Part shown: in pieces, positions 13,957 through 30,057 of the stretch | How the letters are laid out: each line of letters starts with the position of its first letter | Numbering within the stretch: position 1 is the first letter of the stretch | IMG/VR virus record: IMGVR_UViG_3300025098_000064 | Location: 1-53,064 of that record | Source: a virus | Lineage: Duplodnaviria; Caudoviricetes | DNA: 53,064 bases | Strand: one strand, 5' to 3' | The notes under the pieces: generated by a model | The model's database searches: none | Told to the model about the DNA's origin: nothing | The model's input: the letters and a program-made list of their open reading frames with translations, nothing else | Made by a program: the position numbers and the translations under genes

Positions 13957-14012
13957 TTTGGTGGCCCACCTAAGCAGAGAGAGTGGTGTCTTTCTGTGTG
14001 GATATGCGGTTT

Positions 14013-14040
14013 AGAGACCCTGGTAATCCGGGTCTCTTTT
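14013..14040 (+). terminator. Intrinsic terminator after the terminase
   Basis: AGAGACCC(T)GG-TAAT-CCGGGTCTCT hairpin followed by a short T run. Confidence 0.6.
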
Positions 14041-14276: not shown

Positions 14277-14927
14277 ATGTCTACCACTAACAACACTACT
14301 CTTATATCAATTACTCCTAAAGCAGAAGAACTTATCTCTTACTGTGCCAGAGTATCTAACCCTGCAAATCAGGATAATCCTGAATGTGAGAAGTTGATTA
14401 AGTATCTTATTAAACATAATCATTGGTCTCCCTTTGAGTTAGCTCATATGGTGATTGAGATTAATACTACTAGAGCTATTGCTGCTCAGATTCTTAGACA
14501 TAGATCTTTTAGCTTTCAAGAGTTCTCTCAGAGGTATGCTTCTGTTAATGAACTTCAATCTCCTGCTATTCCTGATCTTAGGAGACAAGACCTAAAGAAT
14601 AGACAAAACTCTATTGATGATCTTAATCCTTGGGATAAACAATCTCTTCAGATGGAGATTAGAGATCATTTCTATGAATCAACAAAACTCTATAACCGTC
14701 TCCTGTCTAAAGGTGTGGCTAAAGAGTCAGCAAGGTCTGTGTTGCCTTTGAACACCCCTACTCGGTTGTATATGGCTGGGTCTATTAGATCCTGGATTCA
14801 TTACATCCAGCTTAGGTCTGCTAACGGTACTCAGCTTGAGCATCAACAGATTGCTGAGGGTTGTCGTGATGTGTTTAAGGAGTGTCTTCCTAATATTTAT
14901 ATGGCTGTATTTAATGGCGACGAATAA
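14277..14927 (+). CDS. thyX: FAD-dependent thymidylate synthase
   Basis: ThyX signature RHRSFSFQEFSQRY, plus HWSPFE and KESARSVLP. Confidence 0.95.
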   Translation: MSTTNNTTLISITPKAEELISYCARVSNPANQDNPECEKLIKYLIKHNHWSPFELAHMVIEINTTRAIAAQILRHRSFSFQEFSQRYASVNELQSPAIPDLRRQDLKNRQNSIDDLNPWDKQSLQMEIRDHFYESTKLYNRLLSKGVAKESARSVLPLNTPTRLYMAGSIRSWIHYIQLRSANGTQLEHQQIAEGCRDVFKECLPNIYMAVFNGDE

Positions 14928-15084
14928 ACAGCTTCAGGACGCTCTAGACGCGGCTCTGAAGGCTAAGAACCCTGTTCTGGTACGATCTATCAGGGCAGCT
15001 ATGGAGGGACGTGTTGTGAACCCTTTTGAGGGTATGTCTATCCATCCTGAGGTAGACCACCTCTGGAACTTCCCTTCAGAGTAA
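14914..15084 (+). CDS. Hypothetical protein (56 aa)
   Basis: ATG 14914 (MATNKQLQDALDAAL...) overlaps the end of thyX; it is the last late gene before the long non-coding gap. Confidence 0.5.
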   Translation: MATNKQLQDALDAALKAKNPVLVRSIRAAMEGRVVNPFEGMSIHPEVDHLWNFPSE

Positions 15085-15525
15085 AATGACATAATTTTCT
15101 GAAGTCTATAACCTGGTGGGTTGTTTACATTTTCCCCCCGTATGTACCCCGTTTTCCACAGGCAAAAGTGGGGCAGATTAGCGTTTTTATCTCTCATTTA
15201 GTGGGCATGATTTGCCCTCCTAAATATTATTTAAGGGGCCTGACTTGCATTTTTATTTCTCAATCAGCGCTCCTGATTGCGTTTGCTTGTAATAAATAGC
15301 TGAGATCCACTGGTATGACTGCGTTCTCGTTAGTCTGGATATCCAGTGAGTTCTAATTCATGCCGCATGATTGCCACTAAGTAACATCAACCTAAATAAT
15401 AATTTATATCTACTGATTTTCTTTGATGTTTACTTTGTTTTTTATTTATGTGTCATCATCTGTTGACTTGTTATTTGTAATCATATCAACACAATTAATC
15501 AGTAGTTCTTATCACTAACAGAAAC
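15085..15525. other. Probable genome terminus / collapsed terminal repeat region of phage B
   Basis: About 440 bp, AT-rich and non-coding, between the last late gene and the first early gene. This is where T7-like genome ends map. Inferred from position only. Confidence 0.55.
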
Positions 15526-15780
15526 ATGCCTAACATTAATCAACTGTACCAAGAGAACATAGAAAGATCAGTAGCCGAACTATATGATCACATGAACAAC
15601 AATCTCCTAGGCTGGTTATCCGATGACGGAAAATATGCAGACACTGAGGATTTAACACCAGAACAGATAGATTCAATTAGTGCGGTTCAGTCAATCGAAG
15701 AGGAATGGGTTCTCAATGCTGAGCTGCGCGAAGAGGTTTCTATGCTCCGCTTTGCTGATGACGATGACGACGACAGCTGA
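15526..15780 (+). CDS. Acidic early hypothetical protein
   Basis: 84 aa, Asp/Glu-rich, ending FADDDDDDS; first ORF of the early region. Confidence 0.65.
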   Translation: MPNINQLYQENIERSVAELYDHMNNNLLGWLSDDGKYADTEDLTPEQIDSISAVQSIEEEWVLNAELREEVSMLRFADDDDDDS

Positions 15781-15903
15781 ATTGTTAAGAAATATCAATT
15801 CTTAGCTCGACTCACTTCCACTAGCAGAGACGAGGCTGCATACTGTGTGCAAGCGAGAGGAACGGAGAAGGCGAAAGCCTGCGCCTCTACTGCTTTAAAC
15901 AAT

Positions 15904-15916
15904 TCCACTAAGACAG
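15904..15916 (+). promoter_or_regulatory. TCCACT-N4-CAG motif (first of at least 8 full copies; others at 16161, 16568, 16961, 17844, 18063, 22159, 27420; variant at 25022)
   Basis: Co-oriented 13-mers, each 2-28 nt upstream of a start codon. Confidence 0.7.
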
Positions 15917-15944
15917 CTAACTTCAAAACAAGGTCTCTCATCCC

Positions 15945-16145
15945 ATGACAACATCACGCCTAGTAGCAGTCACAACCGCTCCAGTCGGTCTAATCCTGAT
16001 CATGCTGGCCATTGTCTCAATCATCGCCACACCACCTGCTACAGAGGCAGCACGGCGCGGCATGGGTCAGTTCATGCAAGCTTCACTCGCTCTTGTTTGT
16101 GTCGGCGCTACTGCTGCTGCTATTGACCACGAGCGAGCCCACTAG
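15945..16145 (+). CDS. Early membrane hypothetical protein
   Basis: 66 aa with two hydrophobic segments, preceded by the motif at 15904. Confidence 0.55.
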   Translation: MTTSRLVAVTTAPVGLILIMLAIVSIIATPPATEAARRGMGQFMQASLALVCVGATAAAIDHERAH

Positions 16146-16181
16146 TATTGTTTTCTCAACTCCACTAACACAGGCAACGCC

Positions 16182-16424
16182 ATGTCCTTCAAAAACAACA
16201 CAGGCCACCAACTCACCAACACCATGGAGCAGACCATGGTCAGGTATGCAAACAAGCTGGAAGAGGCAACGGGCTTTTCCATTCAGCTTGATTTCAATTC
16301 AGAAGATGACGACTATGAGATCTCTTTAGTTGATCCATGCGGCGACCTTGAAGGCGAACCATGGACTGCATGGACTGATTTCGTTCACGACACAGAGTCA
16401 CAGATCACGCTCGCCCTTATCTAG
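16182..16424 (+). CDS. Early hypothetical protein
   Basis: 80-aa acidic ORF preceded by the motif at 16161. Confidence 0.65.
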   Translation: MSFKNNTGHQLTNTMEQTMVRYANKLEEATGFSIQLDFNSEDDDYEISLVDPCGDLEGEPWTAWTDFVHDTESQITLALI

Positions 16425-16426
16425 TA

Positions 16427-16552
16427 ATGACAATTCAAGAGATGGACCGCATGAACGATCTTCTACAGGATCAAATTCTCGCCGCGTATGAACGGCAACA
16501 AGAACGTGACTATGACGCCATGGTCAACGAAGAGGCACCACAAGACGATTAG
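16427..16552 (+). CDS. Early acidic micro-protein (41 aa)
   Basis: MTIQEMDRMNDLLQDQILAAYERQQERDYDAMVNEEAPQDD* fills the gap between 16424 and the next motif. Confidence 0.55.
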   Translation: MTIQEMDRMNDLLQDQILAAYERQQERDYDAMVNEEAPQDD

Positions 16553-16604
16553 TCGTCTCTCATCAGCTCCACTACCGCAGACCACACCCACCACCAACAA
16601 ACTC

Positions 16605-16952
16605 ATGAGAAAAATTGAAGCACAAATGAACGCCGCTGTTCGCAGTCGTCGGGATTGGCATTCAGGCAACACCAGCGTTGACAACACAGATCATGGTGTC
16701 GTGATCAGGCTGCATGGTCATAAGATCTGCGTCCTTAATGATCACAACGAATCAGGCAGAACACAGCTCGCCATCACTGACGCAGGGTGGCAAACCACCA
16801 CCACAAAGTCACGCATCAATGCGCTTCTCGCTGAGTTTACAAAAGGAGCTCGTGTCTATCAATCAAAGTTTGAATGGTACTTGAGTGAATCAGCCGATAA
16901 GCCTGTTGTGTCAATGGAAAGTGGGGAAGCCTACCTAGTAGAAGGCTATTGA
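16605..16952 (+). CDS. Conserved cyanophage-type hypothetical protein
   Basis: Start reassigned to ATG 16605 (MRKIEAQMNAAV...LHGHKI...GWQTTTTKSRINALL), a pattern I recall from cyanophage hypothetical proteins; preceded by the motif at 16568. Confidence 0.7.
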   Translation: MRKIEAQMNAAVRSRRDWHSGNTSVDNTDHGVVIRLHGHKICVLNDHNESGRTQLAITDAGWQTTTTKSRINALLAEFTKGARVYQSKFEWYLSESADKPVVSMESGEAYLVEGY

Positions 16953-16975
16953 TCATCACCTCCACTCACGCAGCC

Positions 16976-17194
16976 ATGAAAGTTTTTCCTATGACTATCT
17001 CTGACGCATCACCACGCCTGAAGTTTCTTATTAAACAACTAGAAGCAAAAGCGGGCGTTACTTCATATGATTTTATCCTTGAAAATCCTGACTTGTTTAA
17101 TCGATCAATGATCAAAGAAGCGGACATGCTCGATGATATGTGGACAAACGAGATACGCAATGCTTTCGATAATCGCGCTGCTGAATCATCCTAA
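16976..17194 (+). CDS. Early hypothetical protein
   Basis: ATG 16976 (or 16991) immediately after the motif at 16961. Confidence 0.55.
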   Translation: MKVFPMTISDASPRLKFLIKQLEAKAGVTSYDFILENPDLFNRSMIKEADMLDDMWTNEIRNAFDNRAAESS

Positions 17195-17248
17195 CCCGTG
17201 CATTCTAGTAAGCATTAGTAACTCATCCCCACTAAATAATACATAGCG

Positions 17249-17278
17249 ACCCTGCGATTTTTCGCGGGGTTTTTATTT
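17249..17278 (+). terminator. Intrinsic terminator of the early transcript
   Basis: ACCCTGCGA-TTTT-TCGCGGGGT stem followed by TTTTATTT. Confidence 0.6.
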
Positions 17279-17863
17279 GAAAAGAATAGGCAGGGGTGAC
17301 CCGACACACATTCATCTCTCATCAAAAGAGCGCTACCAGCCCCTGCAAAAGCAAATAAGCCAGCCTTGTGTGTCTTGATACCTGGACAATCATTGACGGC
17401 CACTTGCACGCCCACAGATGAGCGTTAATATGATCATATCGAGAGGCACCGGGACAGCAAACCCACCGCCAACGAAAGCCCGAAGAGCAGGGGGGCAATA
17501 GGGTTCCACCCGCAATTCTTTTCATTAGTTGTGCAAAGCTTCTCGATTTCTTTTTTTCATTTGTTTCTCCTACGTGAGCTTAAACATGAACAACGTTCCA
17601 GCAGTTCACTTTCTCCACGAAACAATTCATCAATCACCAGCCCCTGCAATTGGTTCACGGTGTAACAGACCACAAGCACTACGTGCCAATAAGGTATTTA
17701 GCGCTACAGTAATTTCAGGCGGTAAGAAGTACGGGAAGCAAGTAAGTCCCATTATTCATAATCCGCATATAAAACATGCTGGTGTTGGTATCATTTGGAA
17801 CCAGTTTTAGGCATTATGACTTATAGTGATAAGCATTGTCATCTCCACTAACACAGCTCAGTG

Positions 17864-18037
17864 ATGATCAGCTACCTGTGCAGATACAAAGACCACCAGG
17901 GGAAAGAGCACAGGGCTGTTTTCATTTGTAGGGATGCATTTCATGCACGACTTACTTTTGAGGAAATGGTCGGTTCGGATTCAGCTCACCTAATTGGCAT
18001 TCTTCCTGTCCGAGACAGTAAGGACATGTGGGAATAG
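17864..18037 (+). CDS. Early hypothetical protein (57 aa)
   Basis: MISYLCRYKDHQGKEHRAVFICRDAFHARLTFEEMVG...DMWE*, starting 7 nt after the motif at 17844. Confidence 0.55.
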   Translation: MISYLCRYKDHQGKEHRAVFICRDAFHARLTFEEMVGSDSAHLIGILPVRDSKDMWE

Positions 18038-18093
18038 GCCCACTTTTTAATCTCTCATCAGTTCCACTAACACAGACCAGCCCCTGCTTTTAC

Positions 18094-20451
18094 ATGACTT
18101 CTGATTTCGATCTCATCTCCCGCCAGCTTCGGAGAGAAATTGAACAAGGCGACATTGCTCAATCAAGGCTAAAAACCAAGACCAGAGCAGCTGAAGACAA
18201 AAGCTATGCGTCTTCTACTGTTTACGGTCAACAAATGGTCAAGTCAGCTTTTTCGCTAATCGCGAAGCAACTGGCTATCAATTTAAAGACTCTTGGTCGT
18301 GGTCAAGGTGCCGTTGATGGTGCCACTGTTTTCAAGCACCTGAAGGATGCAGATCTTGAAGTAACCGGTGCCCTTACAGCCAAAGTGCTACTAGATGTGC
18401 TCGGTAAAAAAGATCACCAAGTACCTTCTCAACTACAGATCACGGTTCCAATTGGGTCAGCAATTGAGACTGAGCAGAAACTTTGTTGGTATCTAAGCCA
18501 AGACAAAGATCTTTTCAAGAGAACAGAGCAAAGCTTTCACGGCAGCACAGGCACCCGTCAAAAGGCCACTGTCTTTCGTTTGAAATTCAACGAGGCCGGA
18601 CTTGTTTGGAAACCTTGGGGTTCAACTGTTCAGCACAAGGTCGGTTCATGGGCACTACGAGCCCTGATCGAATCAACTGGATGGGTCTATACAGATTTGA
18701 TCTGGACCAGCCCCCGCAAATCCAAAACAGTAATCCGATTCACTCAAGAATTTCTGGGTTTAAGGGACTCAATTATGGAACGGGCTTTAAGCCTCTCCTA
18801 TTGTTTGTATCCCATGCTTTGCGCTCCAGCACTGTGGACAAATGAGCAACGTGGGGGGTACTTGACCGAAGAGATCAGGGGCACATCACCCATGATTCGC
18901 AAGGCAAGTTTTGATGGCCCACCTAAGCAGGGAAACGTGCCGATTGATTTTCTAAACAATATCAACGCACAAAAACTGCGCATCAATCATCAGGTTCTTG
19001 ATGTTGCCGAATGGTGCTATGAGAACCGTCGACAAGTGGACAAGTTCAGAATCTCTGATGCTTTACCACTGCTCGATCCGTTCCTTGGTGACCCAATAAC
19101 TGAGCCGCAACGCTTCAAAGATTGGAAGCGTGAACAGCGCAAGATCAACGACTTCAATGCTCAGCTCTTTCAGTACAACTGGAGAGTCACCGAGACATTG
19201 TTTGTTGCTCGGATGTACAAGAATGAACCTTCATTCAGAATCCCTTGGAGCTTTTGCTACAGGGGAAGAATCTATCCGCTATGTACAGGGCTCAATCCAC
19301 AAGGTACAGACTTTGACAAAAGCCTGTTTTACTTTGCAGATGAAGGTCCAGTTAATGAGTATTGGATAGCCTGGAGCGTAGCAACCTGCTTCGGGCACGA
19401 TAAATTGAGTCATGATGATCGTGTGAATTGGACTAGAGAAAACAAATCTCTCATCAGTCGAATCGCTGATGATCCAATTTCTAATATCTCAGAATGGGAA
19501 AAGGCAGACGAGCCCTGGTGTTTCCTCGCCTCGGTATTTGAATATGCTGCTTGTTGTATCAACTTCACCAAGACCACATCTGGACTTGGAATTGGATTAG
19601 ATGCAACCCTATCTGGGCTTCAACATCTCAGTTCACTTACCAAAGACAAGGTAGCTGGTGCCCAATGCAATCTGATTTCTAATGGTGAGAACAGGCCAAA
19701 CGATGGTTACAAAACCGTCGCTGAAGCCTCTTTGAAATACATTAAAGATCCAGAAATACATCCTTACATCACACGTTCTGTTACCAAAAGATGCGTGATG
19801 ACGAAGGTTTACGGGTGTTCCAGAGACTCAGCTCGTACCTACATCAGACAAGCACTTAAGAAATCTGGGTTTGATATTTCAATACCTGGACGTTTAGGTG
19901 AAATTGTTGATGCTATCTACAAGCACGCAATGCCTGAAGTCTTTGAAGGTCCAGTGAAGGTAATGGATTGGCTCCAAGAGTCTGCTACTACCTTGCTAAA
20001 AGAGCGAGGACAAGAAACTATTGAATGGGTCACACCTTCAGGGTTTCGTGTTGTTCAAGACATTCGTCACCCCAAAACCAAAAGAATCAAGACTCAGTTA
20101 ATGGGTCAGGTTCAAAAGTTTATGGTCGGTGACGGTTACGGCGGTGTTGATTACAAGGGTCATAAAGCTGCGATTGCACCTAATTTTGTGCATTCACTAG
20201 ATTCTGCTCTGATCCAGCTGACCTTTGCCTATTGGGATCGTCCTTTCTCCGTAATCCATGATTGCGTTTTAGTTCGCTCCTGTGACACAGCTGAGATGAT
20301 GTCCGACATCAGAATGCATCATGCTGAGATCTATAAAGGAGATCCTTTGTATGATTTTGCAGATCAACTAGGACTTGAACGTCCTGAGCATTTGATGAAG
20401 AACACCTTAAATATCGACGATGTTAACAATTCACCTTATTTTTTTTGCTGA
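18094..20451 (+). CDS. Single-subunit DNA-directed RNA polymerase (T7 gp1-like)
   Basis: YRGRIY, motif A LDATLSGLQHLS, motif B RSVTKRCVMTKVYG, APNFVHSLDS and motif C VIHDC. Start reassigned to ATG 18094. Confidence 0.96.
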   Translation: MTSDFDLISRQLRREIEQGDIAQSRLKTKTRAAEDKSYASSTVYGQQMVKSAFSLIAKQLAINLKTLGRGQGAVDGATVFKHLKDADLEVTGALTAKVLLDVLGKKDHQVPSQLQITVPIGSAIETEQKLCWYLSQDKDLFKRTEQSFHGSTGTRQKATVFRLKFNEAGLVWKPWGSTVQHKVGSWALRALIESTGWVYTDLIWTSPRKSKTVIRFTQEFLGLRDSIMERALSLSYCLYPMLCAPALWTNEQRGGYLTEEIRGTSPMIRKASFDGPPKQGNVPIDFLNNINAQKLRINHQVLDVAEWCYENRRQVDKFRISDALPLLDPFLGDPITEPQRFKDWKREQRKINDFNAQLFQYNWRVTETLFVARMYKNEPSFRIPWSFCYRGRIYPLCTGLNPQGTDFDKSLFYFADEGPVNEYWIAWSVATCFGHDKLSHDDRVNWTRENKSLISRIADDPISNISEWEKADEPWCFLASVFEYAACCINFTKTTSGLGIGLDATLSGLQHLSSLTKDKVAGAQCNLISNGENRPNDGYKTVAEASLKYIKDPEIHPYITRSVTKRCVMTKVYGCSRDSARTYIRQALKKSGFDISIPGRLGEIVDAIYKHAMPEVFEGPVKVMDWLQESATTLLKERGQETIEWVTPSGFRVVQDIRHPKTKRIKTQLMGQVQKFMVGDGYGGVDYKGHKAAIAPNFVHSLDSALIQLTFAYWDRPFSVIHDCVLVRSCDTAEMMSDIRMHHAEIYKGDPLYDFADQLGLERPEHLMKNTLNIDDVNNSPYFFC

Positions 20452-20600
20452 TGTCTGGTATCCCACCGAACACTAGAACTGATGACCGTATCATTTATTA
20501 CGTGATGCATGAGCAGTACCAAAGAGCTGAAATCCTTGTTGCCATTGCGGAACAGCTGGAAGAAGCCTTTTTTGCTGCACCTTTGCTGACTGCGGAATGA
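20451..20600 (+). CDS. Small hypothetical protein (49 aa)
   Basis: TGATG overlap with the RNAP stop; MSGIPPNTRTDDRIIYYVMHEQYQRAEIL... Confidence 0.5.
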   Translation: MSGIPPNTRTDDRIIYYVMHEQYQRAEILVAIAEQLEEAFFAAPLLTAE

Positions 20601-20708
20601 TGCTCCCTAAAGTGCGGGATATGCGTTTATGCATTTTTTGCCTTGTTTGAGATCAGTTGTGGTAGTGAAATCGAATTAAAATGGGCTTGGACCCATTAGA
20701 GAGGTGTT

Positions 20709-21125
20709 ATGCCCTCCCCAAAGCCACAGCTCACGTCAGATGATTGTTTCCGCGCTTACCTGCTAATCGAGCTGCTTCGTTCCACTGGTGAACGTGAGTT
20801 TCCGCTGCAACTAGCCTCAACACTTTTTTATGTGATGTCCCACGACGGCTGTCGTATGGGTGATCTAGCCACGGCTACTGGTCTCTCATCGTCTTCAGTC
20901 ACACGGAACGTCCAATGGCTAGGAGAGCAGCACAGGCTTGAAGATCGGGAAGGGCTGAAGCTGATCCGGCGTGAGCAAGATCCAGAAGATTACAAAAGGT
21001 TTCGATTGTTTCTTACTCCAAAAGGGAAGCAATGGGTAAACCTGATCGGCAACATTAAATCCATGTCCTTCAAAGAGGTTGAAAGTCATGACCAAGACCA
21101 GTGGGAAAGTCAAGACTTGGGGTGA
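20709..21125 (+). CDS. MarR-family winged-helix transcriptional regulator
   Basis: GCRMGDLATATGLSSSSVTRNVQWL helix-turn-helix and DPEDYKRFRLFLTPKGK wing; GAGGTG ribosome-binding site. Confidence 0.85.
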   Translation: MPSPKPQLTSDDCFRAYLLIELLRSTGEREFPLQLASTLFYVMSHDGCRMGDLATATGLSSSSVTRNVQWLGEQHRLEDREGLKLIRREQDPEDYKRFRLFLTPKGKQWVNLIGNIKSMSFKEVESHDQDQWESQDLG

Positions 21126-21954
21126 GGCCCTTGACTTCACTTTTCAAAACCGTTGGAAACGCACCAGATCAGCAAAAACTGCGCTTATCAATGCCGGTCA
21201 TGTGACCGAATTTGGTGGCCGCTCATTTCCACTAAGGCGAATGAGTAGTCTTGCGTGGTGGATAGAGCTCAGGTCTGAACTTGAAGAGCAGGGCAAATCA
21301 AACGCCACTGTGAATCGGATCAGGTCAGCAGCTTCCACCGTCCTGAAGTACACCCACACCGCTGGGTTGCACGACGTGAAGTGCCCGAAGTTTGAAAGAG
21401 CTAAGGAGTCCGAATGTCGGCAGACCTACTTCACAAAGGACGACACCCAGAACATGGCTGCAATCGCCCGTGACCTATGGGGCGACCGTTGGGGCAACAA
21501 CCTGGCAGACATCATGCTGGTGGCCTTCTATGGCGGATTCAGGCAAGCAGAACTGCTTAACCTTCGTCCAGCGGATTACGACCAGGCGCTTGATCACTTA
21601 GTGATTGGCGGAAAACCCTGGAACATGACGAAATCCGGCAAGGTCCGCAAGATTGCCGTCAACCCCGCAATACAACCGATCATTCTCGACCGCTTGCAGA
21701 ACAATCGTCTTTTCGGAGAGGATTGGCGCAACAAAGATCAGCTCTATGGAGCGTTTAAAAAGGTACGAAATCGGGCTGGGTTTACTGAGGACTATGTATT
21801 TCACAGTCTTCGGCACGGATTCGGCACTGCGTTAGGTGCAGTGGCACACCCACGCATTGTTCAAGAGGCCCTCGGTCACACGACCATTGAGATGGCTCTC
21901 AAATACTGCAAAGCCAGTGACACGGCCACTAGATCTGCCCTTATGGCAATCTAA
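21088..21954 (+). CDS. int: Tyrosine integrase
   Basis: Catalytic set R (GGFRQAELL), K (TKSGK), HSLRH, LGH and Y (ALKYC); followed by a tRNA-like att core. Confidence 0.93.
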   Translation: MTKTSGKVKTWGEALDFTFQNRWKRTRSAKTALINAGHVTEFGGRSFPLRRMSSLAWWIELRSELEEQGKSNATVNRIRSAASTVLKYTHTAGLHDVKCPKFERAKESECRQTYFTKDDTQNMAAIARDLWGDRWGNNLADIMLVAFYGGFRQAELLNLRPADYDQALDHLVIGGKPWNMTKSGKVRKIAVNPAIQPIILDRLQNNRLFGEDWRNKDQLYGAFKKVRNRAGFTEDYVFHSLRHGFGTALGAVAHPRIVQEALGHTTIEMALKYCKASDTATRSALMAI

Positions 21955-22036
21955 AGCGACTAGCACACCCCTCAAACACCCTGTTTTTGGTCGGTGTACT
22001 ACTCAAACGACGGATCCTCAATTGCTGAGATCCCAG

Positions 22037-22077
22037 GCCCATCTGGCGGAATTGGTAGACGCGCTGGTTTTAGGTAC
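22037..22077 (+). mobile_element. Putative attP core: 5' half of tRNA-Leu(TAG)
   Basis: GCCCATCTGGCGGAATTGGTAGACGCGCTGGTTTTAGGTAC has the acceptor 5' strand, D-arm and anticodon loop (TAG). There is no T-arm or 3' half. It lies 82 nt after int. Confidence 0.85.
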
Positions 22078-22117
22078 TGCTGAAATCGTGTCCCACTTAC
22101 GCAACTGAAGAGCACCT

Positions 22118-22141
22118 GGGGGAGTCACATCCCCCTTTTTT
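22118..22141 (+). terminator. Intrinsic terminator downstream of int/attP
   Basis: GGGGGA-GTCACA-TCCCCC followed by TTTTTT. Confidence 0.85.
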
Positions 22142-22191
22142 ATTGGTCTCTCATCAGTTCCACTTAGACAGATAACTAACACGCATAACTA

Positions 22192-22347
22192 ATGAGCCTT
22201 TTTCATTACTCCGAGATGACATATGACGAGCTCACAAGTGCTGTGACCCTCGAAAAAGCTTGCCAATTAAGTCAAGCAGAGATCGATGAATTAACTGATG
22301 AGGAGTTCACTGAATTTCTTGCATGTTGTTCCATCTATGAAGACTAA
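22192..22347 (+). CDS. Small acidic protein (51 aa)
   Basis: MSLFHYSEMTYDELTSAVTLEKACQLSQAEIDELTDEEFTEFLACCSIYED*, following the motif at 22159. Confidence 0.55.
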   Translation: MSLFHYSEMTYDELTSAVTLEKACQLSQAEIDELTDEEFTEFLACCSIYED

Positions 22348-22391
22348 ATATCCAATCAACATATCTAACCAACTCACCCACAATTTCACCC

Positions 22392-22964
22392 ATGGCTAAC
22401 CGCTACCAGTTTAAAACCACCCTTACTGGCTTTATCAATGTCTTTGAGGATTCAGGTCAATTCAACAATCGAGGGTTCAAATACACCCTTCCCAAAGACA
22501 TCATTGCTGAGATGGAAGAAGAGCGAGAAGGTATTCTCGACTGGTGTAAAACCAAGGCTAAAGGTAAAGTTCTCGTCGATTTTGCCCCTTGGGAGCGTTC
22601 CGAAGAAGGACTTGTTTCGTACAGCTATAGCAATGAAAGCCGCAATCCTGAGCCTGTGTTTGTTGATTCCACGGGATCTCCTATTGAAAAGTCTGTATTA
22701 CGTGACCTAAGAAAAGGCACGGAAGTAAACATGATCGTGAGCCATAAACCATCGATGCCTCCTGGCAAGATCGGCTCAAAGCTAGTTGTTCATGGGATCC
22801 AAATCGTCAAGCTTGCCACCGGAAATGGCGCATTAGACAGTGGCTCACTCTCAGAGGATGAAGTGACAGCGATGTTTGGCAAAGTCGATGGCTTTACCCA
22901 AGACGAACCAGCTGTTCGTGAGCTGGTTGCTAGTGCTGCTTCAGAGGATAGCTACGACTTCTGA
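22392..22964 (+). CDS. Single-stranded DNA-binding protein (T7 gp2.5-like)
   Basis: First gene of the replication block; acidic C-terminus ending in Phe (SEDSYDF). Confidence 0.8.
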   Translation: MANRYQFKTTLTGFINVFEDSGQFNNRGFKYTLPKDIIAEMEEEREGILDWCKTKAKGKVLVDFAPWERSEEGLVSYSYSNESRNPEPVFVDSTGSPIEKSVLRDLRKGTEVNMIVSHKPSMPPGKIGSKLVVHGIQIVKLATGNGALDSGSLSEDEVTAMFGKVDGFTQDEPAVRELVASAASEDSYDF

Positions 22965-23314
22965 TGAATTACCGCTCCGGCCTAGAGGAGCGCTTTGCAA
23001 ACTTACTTGATAAAAAAGCTATTCCTTACCTTTACGAAGTAGATCGCATTAAGTACACCATTCAATCTAAATATACCCCTGACTTTTCATTAAAGAATGG
23101 GGTAATCATAGAGACGAAAGGGTTCTTCAAAGGTAGCGATCGAAGCAAGCATCTTGCAGTAAAGGCTCAGAATCCTGAGCTTGATATTAGATTTGTTTTT
23201 CAGCGCAATAATACATTATCTCGGAAAAGTTCCACAACATATGGAGATTGGTGCGATAAGCACGGTTTCCAGTGGTGCATCTTTCCCAATATTCCACCCA
23301 CTTGGTTTCTATGA
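22964..23314 (+). CDS. Endonuclease I / Holliday junction resolvase (T7 gp3-like)
   Basis: YRSGLEE, YTPDF, IIETKG and LDIRFVF...TTYGDWCDKHGF. Confidence 0.93.
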   Translation: MNYRSGLEERFANLLDKKAIPYLYEVDRIKYTIQSKYTPDFSLKNGVIIETKGFFKGSDRSKHLAVKAQNPELDIRFVFQRNNTLSRKSSTTYGDWCDKHGFQWCIFPNIPPTWFL

Positions 23315-23451
23315 ACGATGGACTAGTAATGCTCCGCCTTGATGCTTTCATCGCGGAGCTTGAGGTAGAAGGTTTTCCGATTGATTACATCATGGATGAA
23401 CTTTATGAGTATTTAGAAATCTACGATGAACTCCAACTACCCGCAAAATGA
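23311..23451 (+). CDS. Small acidic protein (46 aa)
   Basis: MNDGLVMLRLDAFIAELEVEGFPIDYIMDELYEYLEIYDELQLPAK*; ATGA overlap with the endonuclease. Confidence 0.55.
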   Translation: MNDGLVMLRLDAFIAELEVEGFPIDYIMDELYEYLEIYDELQLPAK

Positions 23452-25051
23452 ATGTATTCGACATGAATCTTGCCCGGTGTGTCCGAGTAGTGATGCCTTC
23501 GCTGTCTATTCTGATAATGGTGGCTACTGCTTCTCATGCGGATACTATCGGCGAGGTGACAGCGATGACAGTTTGCACAGTCAATTACACCACCAACAAA
23601 GTCATCAAATGCAGGCAACCGAAAGTTTTTCCTATCAAGGGGACTATGCGGGAATCAGAACCAGGAAACTCACAGAAGAAACCTGCCGGAAATTCAACGT
23701 CAAGGTTTCATCTGGACCTGTAGTCAGATTTCCTTACTATTCTGGTGGTCAGGTCGTTGCTTATAAAGAGCGCGATCAACAAAAGAACTTCACCTGGAAA
23801 GGTAAGAACGTAGACCAGCAGCTATTTGGTCAGCAGTTATTTGGTAGTGGCAAAACTATTGTCATTACTGAGGGCGAATTTGATTGTCTTTCAGTTTGGC
23901 AGGCCAGAAATAATTGGCCAGTGGTGAGCATCCCAAATGGTGCTCAGTCAGCCAAAAAAAGTTTGCAAGCCCAGCTGAAATTCCTTCTCGGATTTTCTGA
24001 AATTGTTCTCATGTTTGATGGGGACTCAGCAGGCCAACAGGCTATGGAGGAGTGCGTTGCGCTCTTTCCCTCTGATCAAGTTTTCATCGCAACTATTGCT
24101 GGTTATAAAGATGCCTCCGAGGCTCTTATGGCTGGTGATGGTGAGGCAATTCGCCAAGCTTATTACAACAAACGCTCCTATGTCCCGCAAGCAATCATCG
24201 ACGGTCGAGACCTTTTCGATCTCGTGTCTACGCCCCTCCATGGCCGCGATGCTGATTACCCTTACCCTTCTCTCAATACCATTACAGGTGGCCTTAGGCG
24301 TGGGGAGTTGGTTACCTACACAGCGGGAAGTGGGACGGGAAAAAGTACCGTATGTGGTGAAATCGCAGTCTCTTTGATTAATCAAAATCAAAAGGTTGGA
24401 TTTATCGCCTTAGAGGAAAGCGTTCAGCGCAGTGGCCTAAGACTCATGACTGTGGCTGCAAACAAACCATTACACCTTGACAATCAAATCGATGAACAGC
24501 ATTTCCGTAAAGCCTTCGATAGTACTCTCGGCTCTGGTCGGGTATTCATGCGGGATGGCTTCGGTAGTGTTGATCCTGACGCTCTGTTAAATGACATCCG
24601 CTTCCTTGTTAAGACAAACGGGGTTGAATGGGTCATTCTTGATCACCTCAGCATTTTGCTGTCAGGTAATGATTCACATGACGAGCGTAAAATGATCGAC
24701 ATTGTAATGACAAAGCTGAGATCATTTGTTCAGGAATGTAATATTGGGATGATATTAGTCTCTCATCTCAAACGTATCCAAGGTGACAAAGGTCATGAAG
24801 ACGGTGCGCGTGTATCTATGTCACAACTTCGCGGATCTGGATCAATAGCTCAACTAAGCGATCTTGTTATCGCCTTGGAACGGGACATAAGTAAGGGCGA
24901 CAATCGCTCAAAACTTGTCACCTTGAAAAACAGGTTTAATGGCCAGACAGGCCCGAGTGGAGACCTTGCTTATGACAAGGAGACAGGACGCCTCACAACC
25001 GCTTTATTCGACCCAATCGATTCCACTACCACAACCGACTATGAATTTTAG
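23426..25051 (+). CDS. Primase-helicase (T7 gp4-like)
   Basis: Zinc finger CPVC...CFSC, TOPRIM ITEGEFD/FDGD, Walker A AGSGTGKST, ILDHLS, LRGSGSIAQLSD and KNRFNG. Confidence 0.96.
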   Translation: MNSNYPQNECIRHESCPVCPSSDAFAVYSDNGGYCFSCGYYRRGDSDDSLHSQLHHQQSHQMQATESFSYQGDYAGIRTRKLTEETCRKFNVKVSSGPVVRFPYYSGGQVVAYKERDQQKNFTWKGKNVDQQLFGQQLFGSGKTIVITEGEFDCLSVWQARNNWPVVSIPNGAQSAKKSLQAQLKFLLGFSEIVLMFDGDSAGQQAMEECVALFPSDQVFIATIAGYKDASEALMAGDGEAIRQAYYNKRSYVPQAIIDGRDLFDLVSTPLHGRDADYPYPSLNTITGGLRRGELVTYTAGSGTGKSTVCGEIAVSLINQNQKVGFIALEESVQRSGLRLMTVAANKPLHLDNQIDEQHFRKAFDSTLGSGRVFMRDGFGSVDPDALLNDIRFLVKTNGVEWVILDHLSILLSGNDSHDERKMIDIVMTKLRSFVQECNIGMILVSHLKRIQGDKGHEDGARVSMSQLRGSGSIAQLSDLVIALERDISKGDNRSKLVTLKNRFNGQTGPSGDLAYDKETGRLTTALFDPIDSTTTTDYEF

Positions 25052-25331
25052 AGCCGTTCTTTTCACCAAACAGGATTGCCTGCCCTGCATCACTACTAAA
25101 GATGCACTCAATAAAGTTTTGAAGCTCAACCCAGCTTGTGGTAACTACATTGCCACGTTGGAAAAAGAAAACCACTCTGCTCTTGTTGCAGCTTATGGGC
25201 TTGAGATGTATCCAACTCTCCTTGTTGTTGATGACAACGGGGAAGAGGTAGGCCGTTTTACTGGCGGCAAAAAAGTCCGCGAGTACCTCCCAGGAATCTT
25301 ATCCACCCTGCGAATACTGGAATGCGCTTAG
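25041..25331 (+). CDS. Thioredoxin/glutaredoxin-like protein
   Basis: LFTKQDCLPC (CxxC) and YGLEMYPTLLVVD...GRFTG (cis-Pro loop). Start reassigned to ATG 25041. Confidence 0.85.
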   Translation: MNFRAVLFTKQDCLPCITTKDALNKVLKLNPACGNYIATLEKENHSALVAAYGLEMYPTLLVVDDNGEEVGRFTGGKKVREYLPGILSTLRILECA

Positions 25332-27088
25332 TAGCAGACATCGAGACCAATGGACTGCTCAGGCAAACCAATCCTGTCATTCATTGTTTGGTAACACAGG
25401 ACATCGATACCGGGGAAGTGATCCGGTATGACGATTCAGGTTCTTACCCCCCTATTAAACAAGGGCTAACCAATCTCATGGTGGCTGATGAAATATGGGG
25501 GCATAACTGGATTGGATTTGACCAGTCCTTTATCCGTGAGATCTATCCGTTCTACGAGCCCAAGGGCAAGACCTATGACACGCTCATTCTGTCTCGTTTG
25601 TTTTTCACTGATCTTCTTGATCGGGATTTTAGGCGCAAACCTGCCTTGATGCCTGCAAACCTGTATGGGCGTCATAGTTTAGAGAGCTGGGGGCATCGTC
25701 TATCTTGTCATAAATCTGAGTATGGCAAAACTCTAGAGAATGACTGGTCTATCTACACACCAGAGATGCTGGAATACTGCGTCCGAGACGTAGAAGTCAG
25801 CGTCAAGGTTGTAGAGATGTTCCTTCCCAAGATGGAACAGTACAAAGACTGCATCGCAACGGAGCACAAGGTTGCTGAGATTATGTCTTGGCAAGAATCT
25901 ATGGGTTGGCCATTTGATGTAGCTGCTGCTCATCAACTCGAAGGAAAGCTACGAACTGAACTCGACTCACTCTCAGACGAGATGAGATCAACATTCCTCT
26001 TTGTAAATGGTGGAGTGTTTACGCCTAAGCGCAATAACTCAACACAGGGTTATGTCGAAGGGGCGGCAATGTGCAAACTCAAAGAGTTCAGTCCTACAAG
26101 CCGTGACCATGTGGCGTGGGCTTTCGAGACCTTCCGAGGATGGACGCCTAAAGAACGTACAGATTCAGGTCGAGCCAAGATTGATGACAAGGTACTTAAA
26201 GAGATCGGTACGCCTGAAGCTCTTAAGTTTTCTCGCATCTTGGAACTACAGAAACACCTTGGACAACTGTCTGAAGGTAAGAACGCATGGCTCAAATTAG
26301 AAAACAATGGTCGATTACATCATTCCTGCATTCTTAATACTAATACGGGGCGAATGGCCCATATCCGTATTAATGCTGCCCAAGTCCCTAGTGCTCCTGA
26401 ATATCGATCCTTATTCGGTCCAGGTGAGGGAAGAGTTCAGGTCGCTGCTGACGCCTCTGGTTTGGAATTACGTTGTCTTGGTAGTTATCTTGCTGTCTTT
26501 GATGATTTTAAATTCTCGAAGGAAGTAGTCGAAGGTGACATTCATACAGCTCTGGCCAAGATCTATAAGACCACAAGATCGCTGGGCAAAAATGTAACTT
26601 ATGCGACGATCTATGGCGGGGGCAACATGAAGTTAGGTCTGACGGCTGGTGCTTCAAAAGAGAATGCAGCCAAGAGGGGTAAAGAGATTCGGAACAGTAT
26701 CTTGAAAAACCTTGATGGCTTTGCTGATCTCTCATCAGCTATAGCCGAGCGAGCCAAATCTGGTGTGCTCAAAGGTTTAGACGGAAGACCTATCCGTTTA
26801 CAAGGTAAGGCTCACGCTTCACTGAACTATTTACTTCAGAGTGCGGGCGCAATTATATGTAAATTGTGGCTTATTCGTACCCACGAGCTACTACAAGAGG
26901 CCGGGGTTGATTATTACCCATTGGGCTTCATTCATGATGAACAACAGCTCTCCGTCGCTCCTGGTGACGCTGAGAAGGCTGCATTTTGTCTAGTCGCGGC
27001 CATGAAGGACGTGCAACACCAACTAAACTTTAAATGTGAATTAGATGCAGAGTCTGTTATCGGCAACAATTGGGCGGAATGTCATTAG
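25322..27088 (+). CDS. Family A DNA polymerase (T7 gp5-like)
   Basis: Exonuclease motif DIETNG, motif A DASGLELRCL, motif B KNVTYATIYG and motif C IHDE. Confidence 0.96.
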   Translation: MRLVADIETNGLLRQTNPVIHCLVTQDIDTGEVIRYDDSGSYPPIKQGLTNLMVADEIWGHNWIGFDQSFIREIYPFYEPKGKTYDTLILSRLFFTDLLDRDFRRKPALMPANLYGRHSLESWGHRLSCHKSEYGKTLENDWSIYTPEMLEYCVRDVEVSVKVVEMFLPKMEQYKDCIATEHKVAEIMSWQESMGWPFDVAAAHQLEGKLRTELDSLSDEMRSTFLFVNGGVFTPKRNNSTQGYVEGAAMCKLKEFSPTSRDHVAWAFETFRGWTPKERTDSGRAKIDDKVLKEIGTPEALKFSRILELQKHLGQLSEGKNAWLKLENNGRLHHSCILNTNTGRMAHIRINAAQVPSAPEYRSLFGPGEGRVQVAADASGLELRCLGSYLAVFDDFKFSKEVVEGDIHTALAKIYKTTRSLGKNVTYATIYGGGNMKLGLTAGASKENAAKRGKEIRNSILKNLDGFADLSSAIAERAKSGVLKGLDGRPIRLQGKAHASLNYLLQSAGAIICKLWLIRTHELLQEAGVDYYPLGFIHDEQQLSVAPGDAEKAAFCLVAAMKDVQHQLNFKCELDAESVIGNNWAECH

Positions 27089-27440
27089 CACTAAGCGTCT
27101 GGGTGATCTGGCTGAACAATGGGTATGTCTCTTAGCTGCCTGGAAAGGGGCTGAGGTCTTCCCAAACATTAACTCGACAGGGGCAACTGATCTACTGATG
27201 ATCATTGATGGTCGAACTATCCAGATCGACGTTAAATGTGATCAGATTCGTCATTCAACTGGTAGGTGGGTCAATACCCATAGCGGTTGTGTTTCTGCAC
27301 CTGTCTATCCCGTAGCTGTTACCCCTGGTGGTGACATTTGCTCTTGGACTGTCCGCTGGATCCAGGGCCGTGAACCTTCGGGCTTGTCCGATTTCTGGTC
27401 TAAAGATTACAGCCTCACTTCCACTACCACAGCCGAATGA
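27045..27440 (+). CDS. Putative PD-(D/E)XK endonuclease
   Basis: GDLAE...TDLLMIIDGRTIQIDVK matches the E...D...(D/E)xK catalytic layout. The exact start is uncertain. Confidence 0.55.
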   Translation: MQSLLSATIGRNVISTKRLGDLAEQWVCLLAAWKGAEVFPNINSTGATDLLMIIDGRTIQIDVKCDQIRHSTGRWVNTHSGCVSAPVYPVAVTPGGDICSWTVRWIQGREPSGLSDFWSKDYSLTSTTTAE

Positions 27441-28162
27441 AAACAACGATTCTTCTTGATGCAGACTTCTTCTTCTATCGCGCCGCCTCTTCATCAGAAG
27501 ATGAACTTGACTTCTCCCATGATGTCACTGTTGTTGTCGGGTCTTTCTCCAAGGGAAAAAGCATTATTAATCGCGAGATTGAAAATCTCCTAACTCGCTT
27601 TGATACCGACAAGATTATTTTATTTTTCACAGCACCAGACAATTTCCGTAAGGATGTTGATCCTGAGTACAAAGGCAATCGGACTAAGCGAAAGCCTTGT
27701 GGATATAAAAAATTAGTTAATTGGGGCAAGGAAACTTGGCCCTCACAAACCTATCCCCGATTAGAAGCAGATGATGTTCTTGGCATTGTCGCCACGAATG
27801 GTTCAATTGACGACTTTGTTCTGGTCTCGCCAGATAAAGACATGCAGCAAATTCCTTGTCGACTTTATGATCTCAAAACCGAATACACACAGACTCCAGA
27901 AGCAGCTGAATACAAACTCTGGGAGCAGACGCTCACCGGGGATGCTACTGACGGCTACAAAGGTTGCATCGGCGTGGGGCCGAAACGTGCTGCGCAGATC
28001 CTCAAGAAAGCAAAAGGTAAGTACTGGGAAGTAGTTGTTGAAGCATTTAAGGAAGCAGGTCAAACAGAGGCAGACGCTCTCCGTAACTTGCAACTAGCTC
28101 GAATACTTCAAGCACAGGACTACGACACCAAAACACAAACACCAATTCTATTCACACCATGA
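27437..28162 (+). CDS. 5'-3' exonuclease (T7 gp6-like)
   Basis: LLDADF, NFRK...YKGNR, LEADDVLG, SPDKD and GDATDGYKGCIGVG. Confidence 0.93.
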   Translation: MKTTILLDADFFFYRAASSSEDELDFSHDVTVVVGSFSKGKSIINREIENLLTRFDTDKIILFFTAPDNFRKDVDPEYKGNRTKRKPCGYKKLVNWGKETWPSQTYPRLEADDVLGIVATNGSIDDFVLVSPDKDMQQIPCRLYDLKTEYTQTPEAAEYKLWEQTLTGDATDGYKGCIGVGPKRAAQILKKAKGKYWEVVVEAFKEAGQTEADALRNLQLARILQAQDYDTKTQTPILFTP

Positions 28163-28434
28163 ACAAAGGTCCTTCCTATTACCAGCGTGGAAACACAGAA
28201 GTCTGGGATTTTATCCGTGAACAGGAGCTGAACTATCACCTGGGATGTGCTGTCAAGTACATCGCTCGTGCAGGGCATAAGGAATCCAAAATTCAAGATC
28301 TCACCAAAGCTATCCACTACTTACAAAATGAACTGGAAAACACAATTGATGCGTCAAGCTCAAGAATTTCGTACGACGTTCAAAATAAAGAATACTACAT
28401 CGGCAAGGACGATTCAGAAATGTTTGATCGATGA
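28159..28434 (+). CDS. DUF3310 / T7 gp1.7-like protein
   Basis: PSYYQRGNTEVWDFI...GCAVKYIARAGHK...QDLTKAIHYL. Confidence 0.8.
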   Translation: MNKGPSYYQRGNTEVWDFIREQELNYHLGCAVKYIARAGHKESKIQDLTKAIHYLQNELENTIDASSSRISYDVQNKEYYIGKDDSEMFDR

Positions 28435-28687
28435 AGAGTGGTCTGAGTTTCATGAGGCTTATCACTTTAAATCTAAAGAATGTCAAGCTAAAGAGTTAGG
28501 TGATGTTGTCTTTACTTGTTATCAATATGCTTGTAATGAAGGTTGGGATCTTGATGAGATTATGGATCGTATTTATAAATCAAATATGTCCAAGCTCGAT
28601 GAGAACGGTGAGCCAATCTTTCGTGCAGACGGCAAAGTTCTTAAGTCACAGTTTTATTCCGAACCTATTTTAATTGATTTACTATGA
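28328..28687 (+). CDS. MazG-like nucleoside triphosphate pyrophosphohydrolase
   Basis: LIDEEWSEF...KELGDVV...SNMSKLDENGEPIFRADGKVLK. Start reassigned to ATG 28328. Confidence 0.8.
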   Translation: MNWKTQLMRQAQEFRTTFKIKNTTSARTIQKCLIDEEWSEFHEAYHFKSKECQAKELGDVVFTCYQYACNEGWDLDEIMDRIYKSNMSKLDENGEPIFRADGKVLKSQFYSEPILIDLL

Positions 28688-30057
28688 AAAAAGACTACAT
28701 CGCTCGCACAGGTCGAGTGCGTTCATGGATGGACAATCCAGATTCAAAATTACCGGTGAGCTGCACGGTTTACATCTGCGAAGACGCAATGGAGGGAAGA
28801 AATGGAATTGAGAGCAGCTGGCGCTACGTTAGCCATGCCTTACGGAATGCGGCAGGAGTCGCTGTCCATTTATCTAAACTCCGTCCAAGGGGTACAGAGA
28901 ATGGAAAGGGTCTCGTCTCTTCAGGCCCAGTGTCGTTTGCAAGGATTTACTCTGGACTTAACGAAACTCTAAGAAGGGGTGGGCACTACAAAAATGGTGC
29001 TTGTGTTTGCGTACTAGATCTCAATCATGATGATGTAGAAGAGTTTATTGATGCAACTCGGGCTGAGCTCCCTTGGATCAAAAAGTGTCTGCAAGTTACG
29101 CCTGAATGGTGGGAACAAACATCAGTAAATTTGAAGGAAAAAATTCTTCAGGCACTTAAGGCTGGAGATGTCTGGCTAACTAAAGTTAAGTACGACCAGA
29201 AAGGTAATCGTGTTTTTTCTAATGTTTGCCAGGAGATCTTCTTGCCTCACAGAGGTAGTTGTTTGCTTACCCATGTAAATCTTGGGGCCTGTGATATCGA
29301 TGACTTATATGATGCCTTTTATGAAGGGATGCTTGAACTGTGTAACTTGCATCCTACTACCGGTGTCGGTGAGACAGGGGAGTATCTCGATCCATCAGAA
29401 GATAAACAGGTCGGTCTGGGGATGCTTGGACTTGCCAATTTCCTTTCCATTCATGGAGTAAGTTATGCCGCTTTTGGTGAAGCACTCACACTCGTTGACG
29501 ATGAATCAGCTGCCTGGACTCCAGCGCTTTGTATTGCTCGTAGTCTGCGGAGTGCTATTAACAATGCAGCTAATGTTGCTCGTGCTCATGGCATGGACAG
29601 AGCATTTACAATCGCGCCTACAGCATCATGTTCATACCAATACGTTGACCTTAAAGGAAATACAACAGCACCTGAGATCGCCCCACCCATCAGCAGAAAT
29701 GTAGATCGCGACTCAGGCACCTTCGGTGTCCAGAGCTTCTCATATGGGGATTGCGAAATCGCCAGTGAAGTCGGGTGGGAAAATTACAAGGCAGTTGCAA
29801 ACGGCATCTGCCAATTACTTGAAAATACAGGAATGTTCCATGGCTATTCATATAACCATTGGAGCGATTTCGTCACCTACGACGAGGAATTTATTCAGGA
29901 CTGGTTTAACAGTCCGCAGACATCACTCTATTACGCACTACAAGTCAGCCCAGATACATTGAGGAAAGACGACGTGAGTTCGATTATGGATGAGGACTAC
30001 GCAAATATCTTTGATTTTTCTGATGACAACGACTTCTGCTCCAGCTGCGCTGAGTAG
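28684..30057 (+). CDS. Ribonucleotide reductase alpha subunit (compact cyanopodovirus type)
   Basis: PVSC, NVCQE (NxCxE), TIAPTASCS, SLYY tyrosine pair and C-terminal CSSCAE. Confidence 0.92.
   Translation: MKKDYIARTGRVRSWMDNPDSKLPVSCTVYICEDAMEGRNGIESSWRYVSHALRNAAGVAVHLSKLRPRGTENGKGLVSSGPVSFARIYSGLNETLRRGGHYKNGACVCVLDLNHDDVEEFIDATRAELPWIKKCLQVTPEWWEQTSVNLKEKILQALKAGDVWLTKVKYDQKGNRVFSNVCQEIFLPHRGSCLLTHVNLGACDIDDLYDAFYEGMLELCNLHPTTGVGETGEYLDPSEDKQVGLGMLGLANFLSIHGVSYAAFGEALTLVDDESAAWTPALCIARSLRSAINNAANVARAHGMDRAFTIAPTASCSYQYVDLKGNTTAPEIAPPISRNVDRDSGTFGVQSFSYGDCEIASEVGWENYKAVANGICQLLENTGMFHGYSYNHWSDFVTYDEEFIQDWFNSPQTSLYYALQVSPDTLRKDDVSSIMDEDYANIFDFSDDNDFCSSCAE

Follow-up and report, generated by a model that had tools for sequence, protein, structure and literature searches.

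We examined a 13-nt asymmetric element, TCCACT-N4-CAG, that recurs just ahead of nearly all early and DNA-replication genes of the 53,064-bp IMG/VR virus record IMGVR_UViG_3300025098_000064 (hereafter the window, taken at its full length), which was identified as a T7-like podovirus from PHROG and Pfam scans. The direct observations are the motif itself, its bias to one strand, where it lies and how far related phages share it, and the observation of the motif in an earlier note on this DNA is confirmed. From these features, we infer a reader protein and a start point. To judge from its sequence context, the element most likely marks extra transcription start points, and our tentative reading, with somewhat less than even confidence, is that the single-subunit RNA polymerase of the phage uses it as a weaker promoter of a second class. 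This polymerase appears to have its main promoter elsewhere, and the TCCACT element is a conserved, cassette-associated signal distinct from it.

The earlier note had listed nine sites and three composite 25-mers, all in one orientation and just upstream of start codons, with none before structural genes. All nine sites were recovered with the same coordinates and sequences, and the three 25-mers beginning at 16556, 18051 and 22147 are real. Across the whole window, the pattern TCCACTNNNNCAG was matched 8 times on the plus strand and 0 times on the minus strand (expected 0.50); the maximum among 100 shuffles was 4 matches, and 0 of the 100 reached 8. A pattern ending in CAR was matched 9 times on the plus strand and 0 times on the minus strand. 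A weight matrix was also built from the nine listed sites, whose own high scores follow from their use in training. With a threshold of 13 bits, this matrix gave 10 forward and 0 reverse matches, all of which fell between 15817 and 27420, with none in the structural region. The strand bias was borne out by both the two-strand pattern scan and the matrix scan, and the latter added one further site, at 15817.

This tenth copy, TCCACTAGCAGAG (15817-15829, plus strand as for all sites; 18.5 bits in the matrix), has GAG replacing CAG and lies in the gap after the open reading frame (ORF) at 15526-15780. Among the small early genes, copies were found at 15904-15916 (TCCACTAAGACAG, 28 nt 5' of the ATG at 15945), 16161-16173 (TCCACTAACACAG, 8 nt 5' of the ATG at 16182), 16961-16973 (TCCACTCACGCAG, 2 nt 5' of the ATG at 16976) and 17844-17856 (TCCACTAACACAG again, 7 nt 5' of the ATG at 17864). 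Three more copies belong to the composite 25-mers, in which TCTCTCATC stands immediately 5' of TCCACT. The first of these, TCTCTCATCAGC then TCCACTACCGCAG (16556-16580), lies 24 nt 5' of the ATG at 16605 of a Kyano_Gp96-family ORF. The second (18051-18075) directly follows a hairpin at 18028-18043 and lies 18 nt 5' of the RNA polymerase ATG at 18094, and the third (22147-22171) directly follows the terminator at 22118-22135 and lies 20 nt 5' of the ATG at 22192, with which the replication block opens. The remaining two sites extend into the final codons of the preceding ORF: the variant TCCACTACCACAA, which ends in CAA, lies in the last codons of the primase/helicase gene (25022-25034), 6 nt 5' of the ATG at 25041 of a thioredoxin-like ORF, and TCCACTACCACAG lies in the end of the ORF at 27045-27440 (27420-27432), 4 nt 5' of the exonuclease ATG at 27437. 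The genes named previously at these places, including the polymerase, the thioredoxin-like ORF and the exonuclease, were assigned correctly, as was the post-integrase terminator.

Eight of the ten sites were found entirely in non-coding gaps, which make up approximately 9% of 15526-31388 as counted from ORF coordinates, and at nine sites the 13-mer ends 2-28 nt short of the following ATG. A purine occupies the fourth variable position at all ten sites (10/10). It was noted that the conserved stretch exceeds 13 nt, with TC(A/G) found 5-7 bases upstream in 8 of the 9 matrix sites. The conserved positions span approximately -15 to +4 and are asymmetric and co-oriented with the downstream genes (10 plus, 0 minus), and no dyad symmetry was seen in the 13-mer or its extension when the ten sites were read directly. 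Three copies are located directly 3' of hairpins, namely the clear terminator at 22118-22135, the weaker hairpin at 18028-18043 and a small hairpin near 16545. These hairpins are terminator-like, and transcription must restart there. An additional variant copy, CCCACTTACGCAA, was noted at 22092-22104 between the attachment (att) core and the terminator, and it is retained in four relatives.

The promoter of the Syn5 polymerase has been defined experimentally, alone in this clade, as ATTGGGCACCCGTAA then G at +1, with two copies per genome (PMC3950665). In the Syn5 record, these places lie within the polymerase gene (4929) and just past the large terminase gene (44797). The Syn5 promoter sequence itself, with up to 4 mismatches allowed, had no plus-strand match in the window, P60, S-CBP42 or SS120-1. 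Counterparts were found by position alone, through a search for exact repeats at the two Syn5 promoter places. In the window, TGGCCCACCTAA followed by GCAG occurs in exactly two copies on the plus strand, at 18915-18930 in the RNA polymerase gene, approximately 820 nt past its start (the place of Syn5 promoter 1), and at 13962-13977, 6 nt past the large terminase stop (the place of Syn5 promoter 2), where a transcribed hairpin downstream is conserved. The pair at 18915 and 13962 occupies the Syn5-type places, and the TCCACT motif sits at neither. Since the Syn5-type counterpart here is TGGCCCACCTAA followed by GCAG, TCCACT-N4-CAG can represent no more than a second class of promoter. The earlier proposal that the element is the promoter of this polymerase thus fails for the main promoter, which differs in place and sequence, and may stand for a second class.

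A phage-specific exact repeat pair was found at these places, approximately 0.8 kb into the polymerase gene and just past the large terminase gene, in 8/8 cyanopodoviruses examined. Besides the window and Syn5, these were P60 (ATTGGTGACAGTAA followed by GCAGGG, at 2775 and 42005), SS120-1 (TACAGGGATGTAA followed by ACAG, at 42768 and 38118, with the record read as the reverse complement), S-CBP42 (TGGCCCATGTAA followed by GCAGGGAGA, at approximately 33672 and approximately 26985), S-CBP2 (CATTACCACA followed by GGGGG, at 7087 and 45291), P-SSP7 (CCCTACGTATACA followed by GGGG, at 6856 and 43823 of L180) and L014 (CCATGTTTGAA followed by GGGC, at 10811 and 2151, the second by coordinate only). 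The pair varies in sequence from phage to phage, and the polymerases likewise vary in their specificity-loop segments. In a large promoter-mining study (PMC11880802), Syn5-like promoters were given for Syn5, S-CBP1, S-B28 and P-SSP7 only, and P60, S-CBP42 and SS120-1 were left unassigned; the positional pair of P-SSP7 (6856/43823) differs from the prediction in the supplement of that study.

We sought likenesses between the element and known promoters. Aligned on the Syn5 start point, the window promoter reads TGG-CCCACC-TAA-G-CAG and the element reads NNY-TCCACT-NNN-R-CAG. The two are identical at CCAC and at R, C, A and G, and pyrimidines flank CCAC in both, which gives the shared consensus YCCACY-N3-RCAG. 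All ten sites also carry CACT-N3-R, as in CACTATA followed by G in the T7 promoter; with the start predicted from sequence, CACT would lie at -7 to -4 and the purine at +1. The claim that the element resembles neither the T7 nor the Syn5 promoter therefore had to be dropped, given the core held in common with T7 and the consensus shared with the phage's own Syn5-type promoter. The window polymerase protein is 59% identical to that of P60, 56% to S-CBP42, 52% to SS120-1, 49% to Syn5 and 35% to P-SSP7. Syn5 is a phage of the same clade, and the counterpart of its promoter pair shares CCAC and RCAG with the TCCACT motif; however, the Syn5 promoter is present in 2 copies, whereas 10 copies of the TCCACT motif occupy the intergenic gaps ahead of early and middle genes. 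The latter also lacks the upstream TTGG/TGG part of the Syn5 promoter, is variable at -3 to -1 and is absent from Syn5. The promoters of the T7 group (in T7, TAATACGACTCACTATA followed by G, with class II copies before many middle genes) are likewise asymmetric, approximately 20 nt long, co-oriented and present in many copies, and they lie in short gaps or over the ends of upstream ORFs and contain a CACT-N3-purine core. The T3, SP6 and K11 promoters share the CACT core with T7. In contrast to this group, the TCCACT element, counted from its predicted start, is not conserved at -3 to -1 and is conserved at +2 to +4 (CAG), and copies are found upstream of the polymerase gene as well.

Further published likenesses are a repeat of S-CBP42 and, by layout, a promoter of LUZ100. 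The S-CBP42 repeat CACT(A/T)CCACTCAACCAACCG has the same CCACT core before the SSB gene, the small gene after the primase/helicase and the exonuclease gene, but continues with NNRCCA after CCACT where the window has NNNRCAG. It has been published as a repeat without assignment (supplement of PMC11880802), and also as the predicted promoter of a polymerase that is not among the enzymes found active (PMC11475235). A functional description of the motif was not found in the literature searched. LUZ100, a T7-like phage with MarR and integrase genes, has a phage promoter, phi1, placed between a terminator and the adjoining polymerase gene, for which positive feedback as well as control by MarR were proposed (PMC10134795). 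Its MarR-integrase genes lie upstream of the polymerase gene and those of the window downstream, and its start sites were mapped by sequencing, whereas the window element is known from sequence alone.

Conservation was assessed with an unbiased hexamer test, in which hexamers were counted in the 45 nt upstream of predicted plus-strand ORFs. TCCACT ranked first in the window (8 of 64 upstream regions, expected 1.0) and also in P-SSP7 (6 of 60, expected 0.6). The first-ranked hexamers were CCCACT in S-CBP42 (7 of 71, expected 0.9) and TCACTT in S-CBP2 (9 of 62, expected 0.7), and in SS120-1, TTCCAC and CACTAA ranked second to fourth (5 of 57, expected 0.5). No comparable upstream hexamer enrichment was found in P60, Syn5, S-RIP2 or the 22 kb covered of L014. 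Positionally equivalent sites across phages were found before the SSB gene, before the small gene after the primase/helicase and before the exonuclease gene, and the order of terminator then CCACT is also present at the SSB gene of SS120-1.

Among close relatives, changes were found to fall on degenerate positions, and the purine changed only from A to G (3/3 changes, among them one in L329 at the 17844 copy). CAG was changed to AAG at one copy and to CAA at several. The close IMG/VR relatives are approximately 95% or more alike across 22.1-27.5 kb and are therefore too similar for footprinting. When L331 (408-1115) was compared with 16605-16952 of the window, it was noted that the Kyano_Gp96-family gene is replaced by an unrelated 235-residue ORF, and that the homology breakpoints fall exactly at the flanking TCCACT copies (16556-16580 on the left, 16961 on the right). 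By this comparison, the element appears to behave as part of a 'signal plus gene' cassette. A scan with the composite 22-mer returned 10 loci, of which L031, L032, L033, L035 and L039 are fragments of close relatives; L030, L034, L036, L037 and L038 have a single match with no motif array and were treated as unrelated for this reason. A scan of viral contigs with CTCCACTAACACAG returned 112 stretches, none of which was related to the window phage. In metatranscriptomes, small shares were found in just four runs, all as contigs without 5' ends, and in the RNA contigs that cross sites 25022 and 27420, read-through and DNA are indistinguishable.

The other half of the composite 25-mers was noted to be a one-strand motif in its own right. 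This motif, of the TCCTCTCATC type, occurs as TCTCTCATC 13 times on the plus strand and 0 times on the minus strand of the window (expected 0.59), at 9805, 11920, 15934, 16556, 17315, 18051, 19447, 20882, 22147, 24759, 26728, 30544 and 46865. Approximately half of the copies lie within ORFs in various reading frames, and they are retained in relatives despite variable flanks. Related one-strand motifs were found as CACCATCA in Syn5 (21:0), P60 (8:1) and S-CBP2 (9:1), as ACACACTCATCA in P-SSP7 (5:0) and as GTCTCTTGA in SS120-1 (5:0). A pause, nick or replication-linked site are possibilities for this motif. Near the polymerase gene, CCAGCCCCTGC was found three times on the plus strand (17336, 17637 and 18077) within 750 bp upstream, and at 18707 with one mismatch, against an expected count of 0.64 with one mismatch allowed; the 18077 copy starts 1 nt past the 18063 motif. 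This sequence is a candidate regulator site for polymerase expression.

If the element is a promoter class for the phage polymerase, TCCACT-N3-R-CAG, extended upstream to approximately TCA-N-Y, would be a cis-acting start signal that travels with each early or middle cassette. Transcription from this 'core-only' class would start at the invariant purine, four bases past TCCACT. The polymerase would have two full-strength Syn5-type promoters, at 18915 and 13962, and the ten TCCACT sites would re-start transcription after terminators, as at 22147 at the head of the replication block, and would boost individual early and middle genes, with the 18051 site placing the polymerase gene under positive feedback. 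This reading is drawn from the position and orientation of the sites, the restart after terminators, the T7-like geometry and the likeness to the phage's own promoter. The absence of sites from the late region, the placement of most sites in scarce non-coding DNA, the lack of enrichment in candidate hosts, the high rank of the core in the hexamer test and the cassette swap in L331 also favour it. There is precedent for it in LUZ100, in which a phage-specific promoter was mapped between a terminator and the polymerase gene (PMC10134795), and in KP34, whose polymerase is reported to use two unrelated promoters.

Several findings weigh against a promoter read by the phage polymerase. The window, S-CBP42, SS120-1 and P-SSP7 share an unchanged CCACT core though their polymerases are 35-56% identical, the specificity-loop segments differ at most positions and the Syn5-type promoters differ widely. 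A comparison of the loops together with an alignment to the T7 polymerase found no loop residue that tracks the presence of the motif. Because the core is constant despite variable loops, a reader co-varying with the polymerase is not evident. The two motif classes of SS120-1 have almost nothing in common, the predicted leaders are only 6-12 nt at five sites, and one P-SSP7 copy abuts the ATG. P60, which has the closest polymerase (59% identity), is without the motif. In a cell-free screen, the S-CBP42 polymerase supplied with CACTTCCACTCAACCAACCG was not among the active enzymes (8 of 26); the screen had no positive control for that enzyme, all 16 T7-distant enzymes failed, and the authors gave wrong promoter prediction or wrong annotation as possible causes (PMC11475235). 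The Syn5 polymerase is reported to have just two genomic promoters, but Syn5 is without the TCCACT motif (PMC3950665).

An alternative is that the motif is the binding site of the phage's MarR-type protein, acting either as a stoperator-like repressor in lysogeny or as an activator that recruits the host RNA polymerase, and we regard this as rather unlikely. The stoperators of mycobacteriophage L5 are 13-bp asymmetric sites in many copies, with one orientation relative to transcription and in short intergenic gaps. The TCCACT set has the same layout, being 13 bp, asymmetric and present in many co-oriented intergenic copies. The window differs from L5 in being without an L5-type repressor, with the MarR-like protein as its only regulator and the sole DNA-binding protein recognised by Pfam among the small early ORFs, and in that all its sites fall within an 11.6-kb stretch of early and middle genes. 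A MarR homologue was found in 4 of 5 motif-bearing phages (the window, SS120-1, S-CBP2 and P-SSP7) and was absent from 3 of 4 motif-less phages (P60, Syn5 and S-RIP2). However, S-CBP42, with 7 motif copies, gave no match to MarR even at E 1, L014 combines a MarR-like gene with no motif in the 22 kb covered, and the resulting table of motif against MarR (4/1/1/3) is suggestive but not significant (one-sided Fisher exact test by our own arithmetic; 0.17), with the phages being mutually related. The P-SSP7 protein, pMarR, binds the host RNA polymerase alpha subunit and activates a promoter from an unusual site with multiple footprints, but MarR dimers bind palindromes, whereas the motif is without dyad symmetry, and pMarR, the one cyanophage MarR studied so far, activates a gene of the host (PMC9692554). 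In 14/14 Prochlorococcus genomes, which did not include MED4 itself, TCCACT was missing around the start of rne, where pMarR is known to act in MED4. Furthermore, 7 of the 10 sites precede the MarR gene and belong to genes expected to be expressed before it. The earlier idea of MarR-bound stoperators fits the layout of 13-bp asymmetric sites in one orientation, but finds little support given the missing palindrome and the MarR-less S-CBP42. For temperate T7-like phages, it has already been proposed in print that MarR acts as a switch at the promoter preceding the polymerase gene, and the idea of a MarR-based lysogeny circuit is thus published (PMC10134795). In a broader reading, which we consider quite unlikely, both major marine cyanopodovirus clades would share a CCACT-core element whose reader is not the variable specificity loop of the polymerase but a conserved phage or host factor (pMarR being the only named candidate). 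Such a factor would switch the early and middle genes on or off through oriented sites ahead of each cassette, in a stoperator-like or activator-array circuit that adds a lysis/lysogeny layer tied to the integrase module.

It is also rather doubtful that the motif acts in RNA, as a processing site that separates cistrons or as a translation-initiation or control element of early and middle genes. Such a role would fit the constant location on the coding strand at 0-28 nt from the start codon (2-8 nt at five window sites), the lack of a visible Shine-Dalgarno sequence between motif and ATG at nine sites, and the two copies within the 3' end of an upstream ORF, which are hence transcribed regardless. 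The related copies in P-SSP7 and Syn5 precede, rather than follow, the terminator hairpin, and the core is kept across phages with common host translation and RNA-decay machinery. Nevertheless, TCCACT was not enriched upstream of host ORFs (2 of 386 upstream regions, 3.5 expected, rank 2537 of 3182), as assessed in 400 kb from two Prochlorococcus genomes with crude ORF calling. The spacing between motif and ATG ranges over 26 nt, unlike a ribosome-binding element, and no convincing complementarity to the 3' end of 16S was seen by eye. Rfam gave 0 matches in 13900-31500 at E up to 1, and no RNA-binding protein or RNase was recognisable among the early genes in PHROG and Pfam. A further explanation, and in our estimate a very improbable one, is that the motif is an unusual promoter element of the host RNA polymerase used by early and middle genes without a phage factor. 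The polymerase gene first needs the host polymerase and is preceded by terminator-like hairpins at 17248 and 18028, and the motif is restricted to early and middle genes. Against this, no TAnnnT -10 box or -35 box was found at a fixed distance, and sigma-70-like matches in 13900-31500 were fewer than in shuffles (12 vs 26). The enrichment expected of a host element was likewise not seen upstream of host ORFs or in four candidate host genomes, assigned by att match only, in which the 13-mer occurred 2, 2, 7 and 9 times against 2, 3, 15 and 15 for the reversed control. A role as a -35 box was also rejected, since at five sites just 2-8 nt separate the motif from the ATG.

In the literature found, Syn5 is the only T7-like cyanophage with a proven polymerase promoter (PMC3950665). 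The present comparison offers two handles, a position-conserved, sequence-variable promoter pair (8/8 phages) and a multi-copy CCACT-core element that marks early and middle cassettes in five or more of these phages. Should the TCCACT element prove to be a promoter, it would explain the expression of the replication genes beyond the post-integrase terminator, and orthogonal pairs of polymerase and promoter could be drawn from it. A regulator site would instead bear on whether these abundant ocean phages can be temperate.

The gene layout surrounding the sites was assigned by PHROG and Pfam scans. Small early ORFs (15526-18037) are followed by the single-subunit RNA polymerase gene (18094-20451, plus strand), which was also supported by protein alignment. 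Downstream of it are the MarR-like regulator gene (20709-21125, plus strand; phrog_9665 at E 9e-33, with Pfam MarR matches under the curated cut-offs), the tyrosine integrase gene (21079-21954, plus strand) and the att core (22036-22077, plus strand). This core is a 42-nt identity to the 5' half of a tRNA-Leu with 9 nt upstream, found in Prochlorococcus sp. AG-436-M02, and two more genomes match over 41 nt; it is likely the attP site and, by its match, a hint to the host. From the polymerase identities to the P60/Syn5 group together with the Prochlorococcus tRNA-Leu att match, the window is taken to be an uncultivated marine cyanopodovirus of that group. The replication block comprises, in order, the genes for SSB, endonuclease, primase/helicase, the thioredoxin-like ORF, DNA polymerase, exonuclease and ribonucleotide reductase, after which the structural genes follow. 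On the plus strand, terminator-like hairpins were found within the early region (17248-17271, strong, with 10 pairs and a T-run), just before the 25-mer upstream of the polymerase gene (18028-18043, weak, 5 bp, then TTTTTAAT) and after the integrase and att region (22118-22135, with a T-run).

Two further features were noted outside the early and middle genes. The tail-fibre module is duplicated at the ends of the record (3620-9131 vs 47554-52765) in the same order with 72-98% identity, and the record appears to overshoot a genome of approximately 43.6 kb, joining two strain variants. A hairpin at 34290-34325, GAGAGAGGG...CCCTCTCTTC with a loop containing GCACCTCAG, lies in a 414-nt gap before the major capsid gene, and similar hairpins in SS120-1 carry GGGCACCTCA elements.

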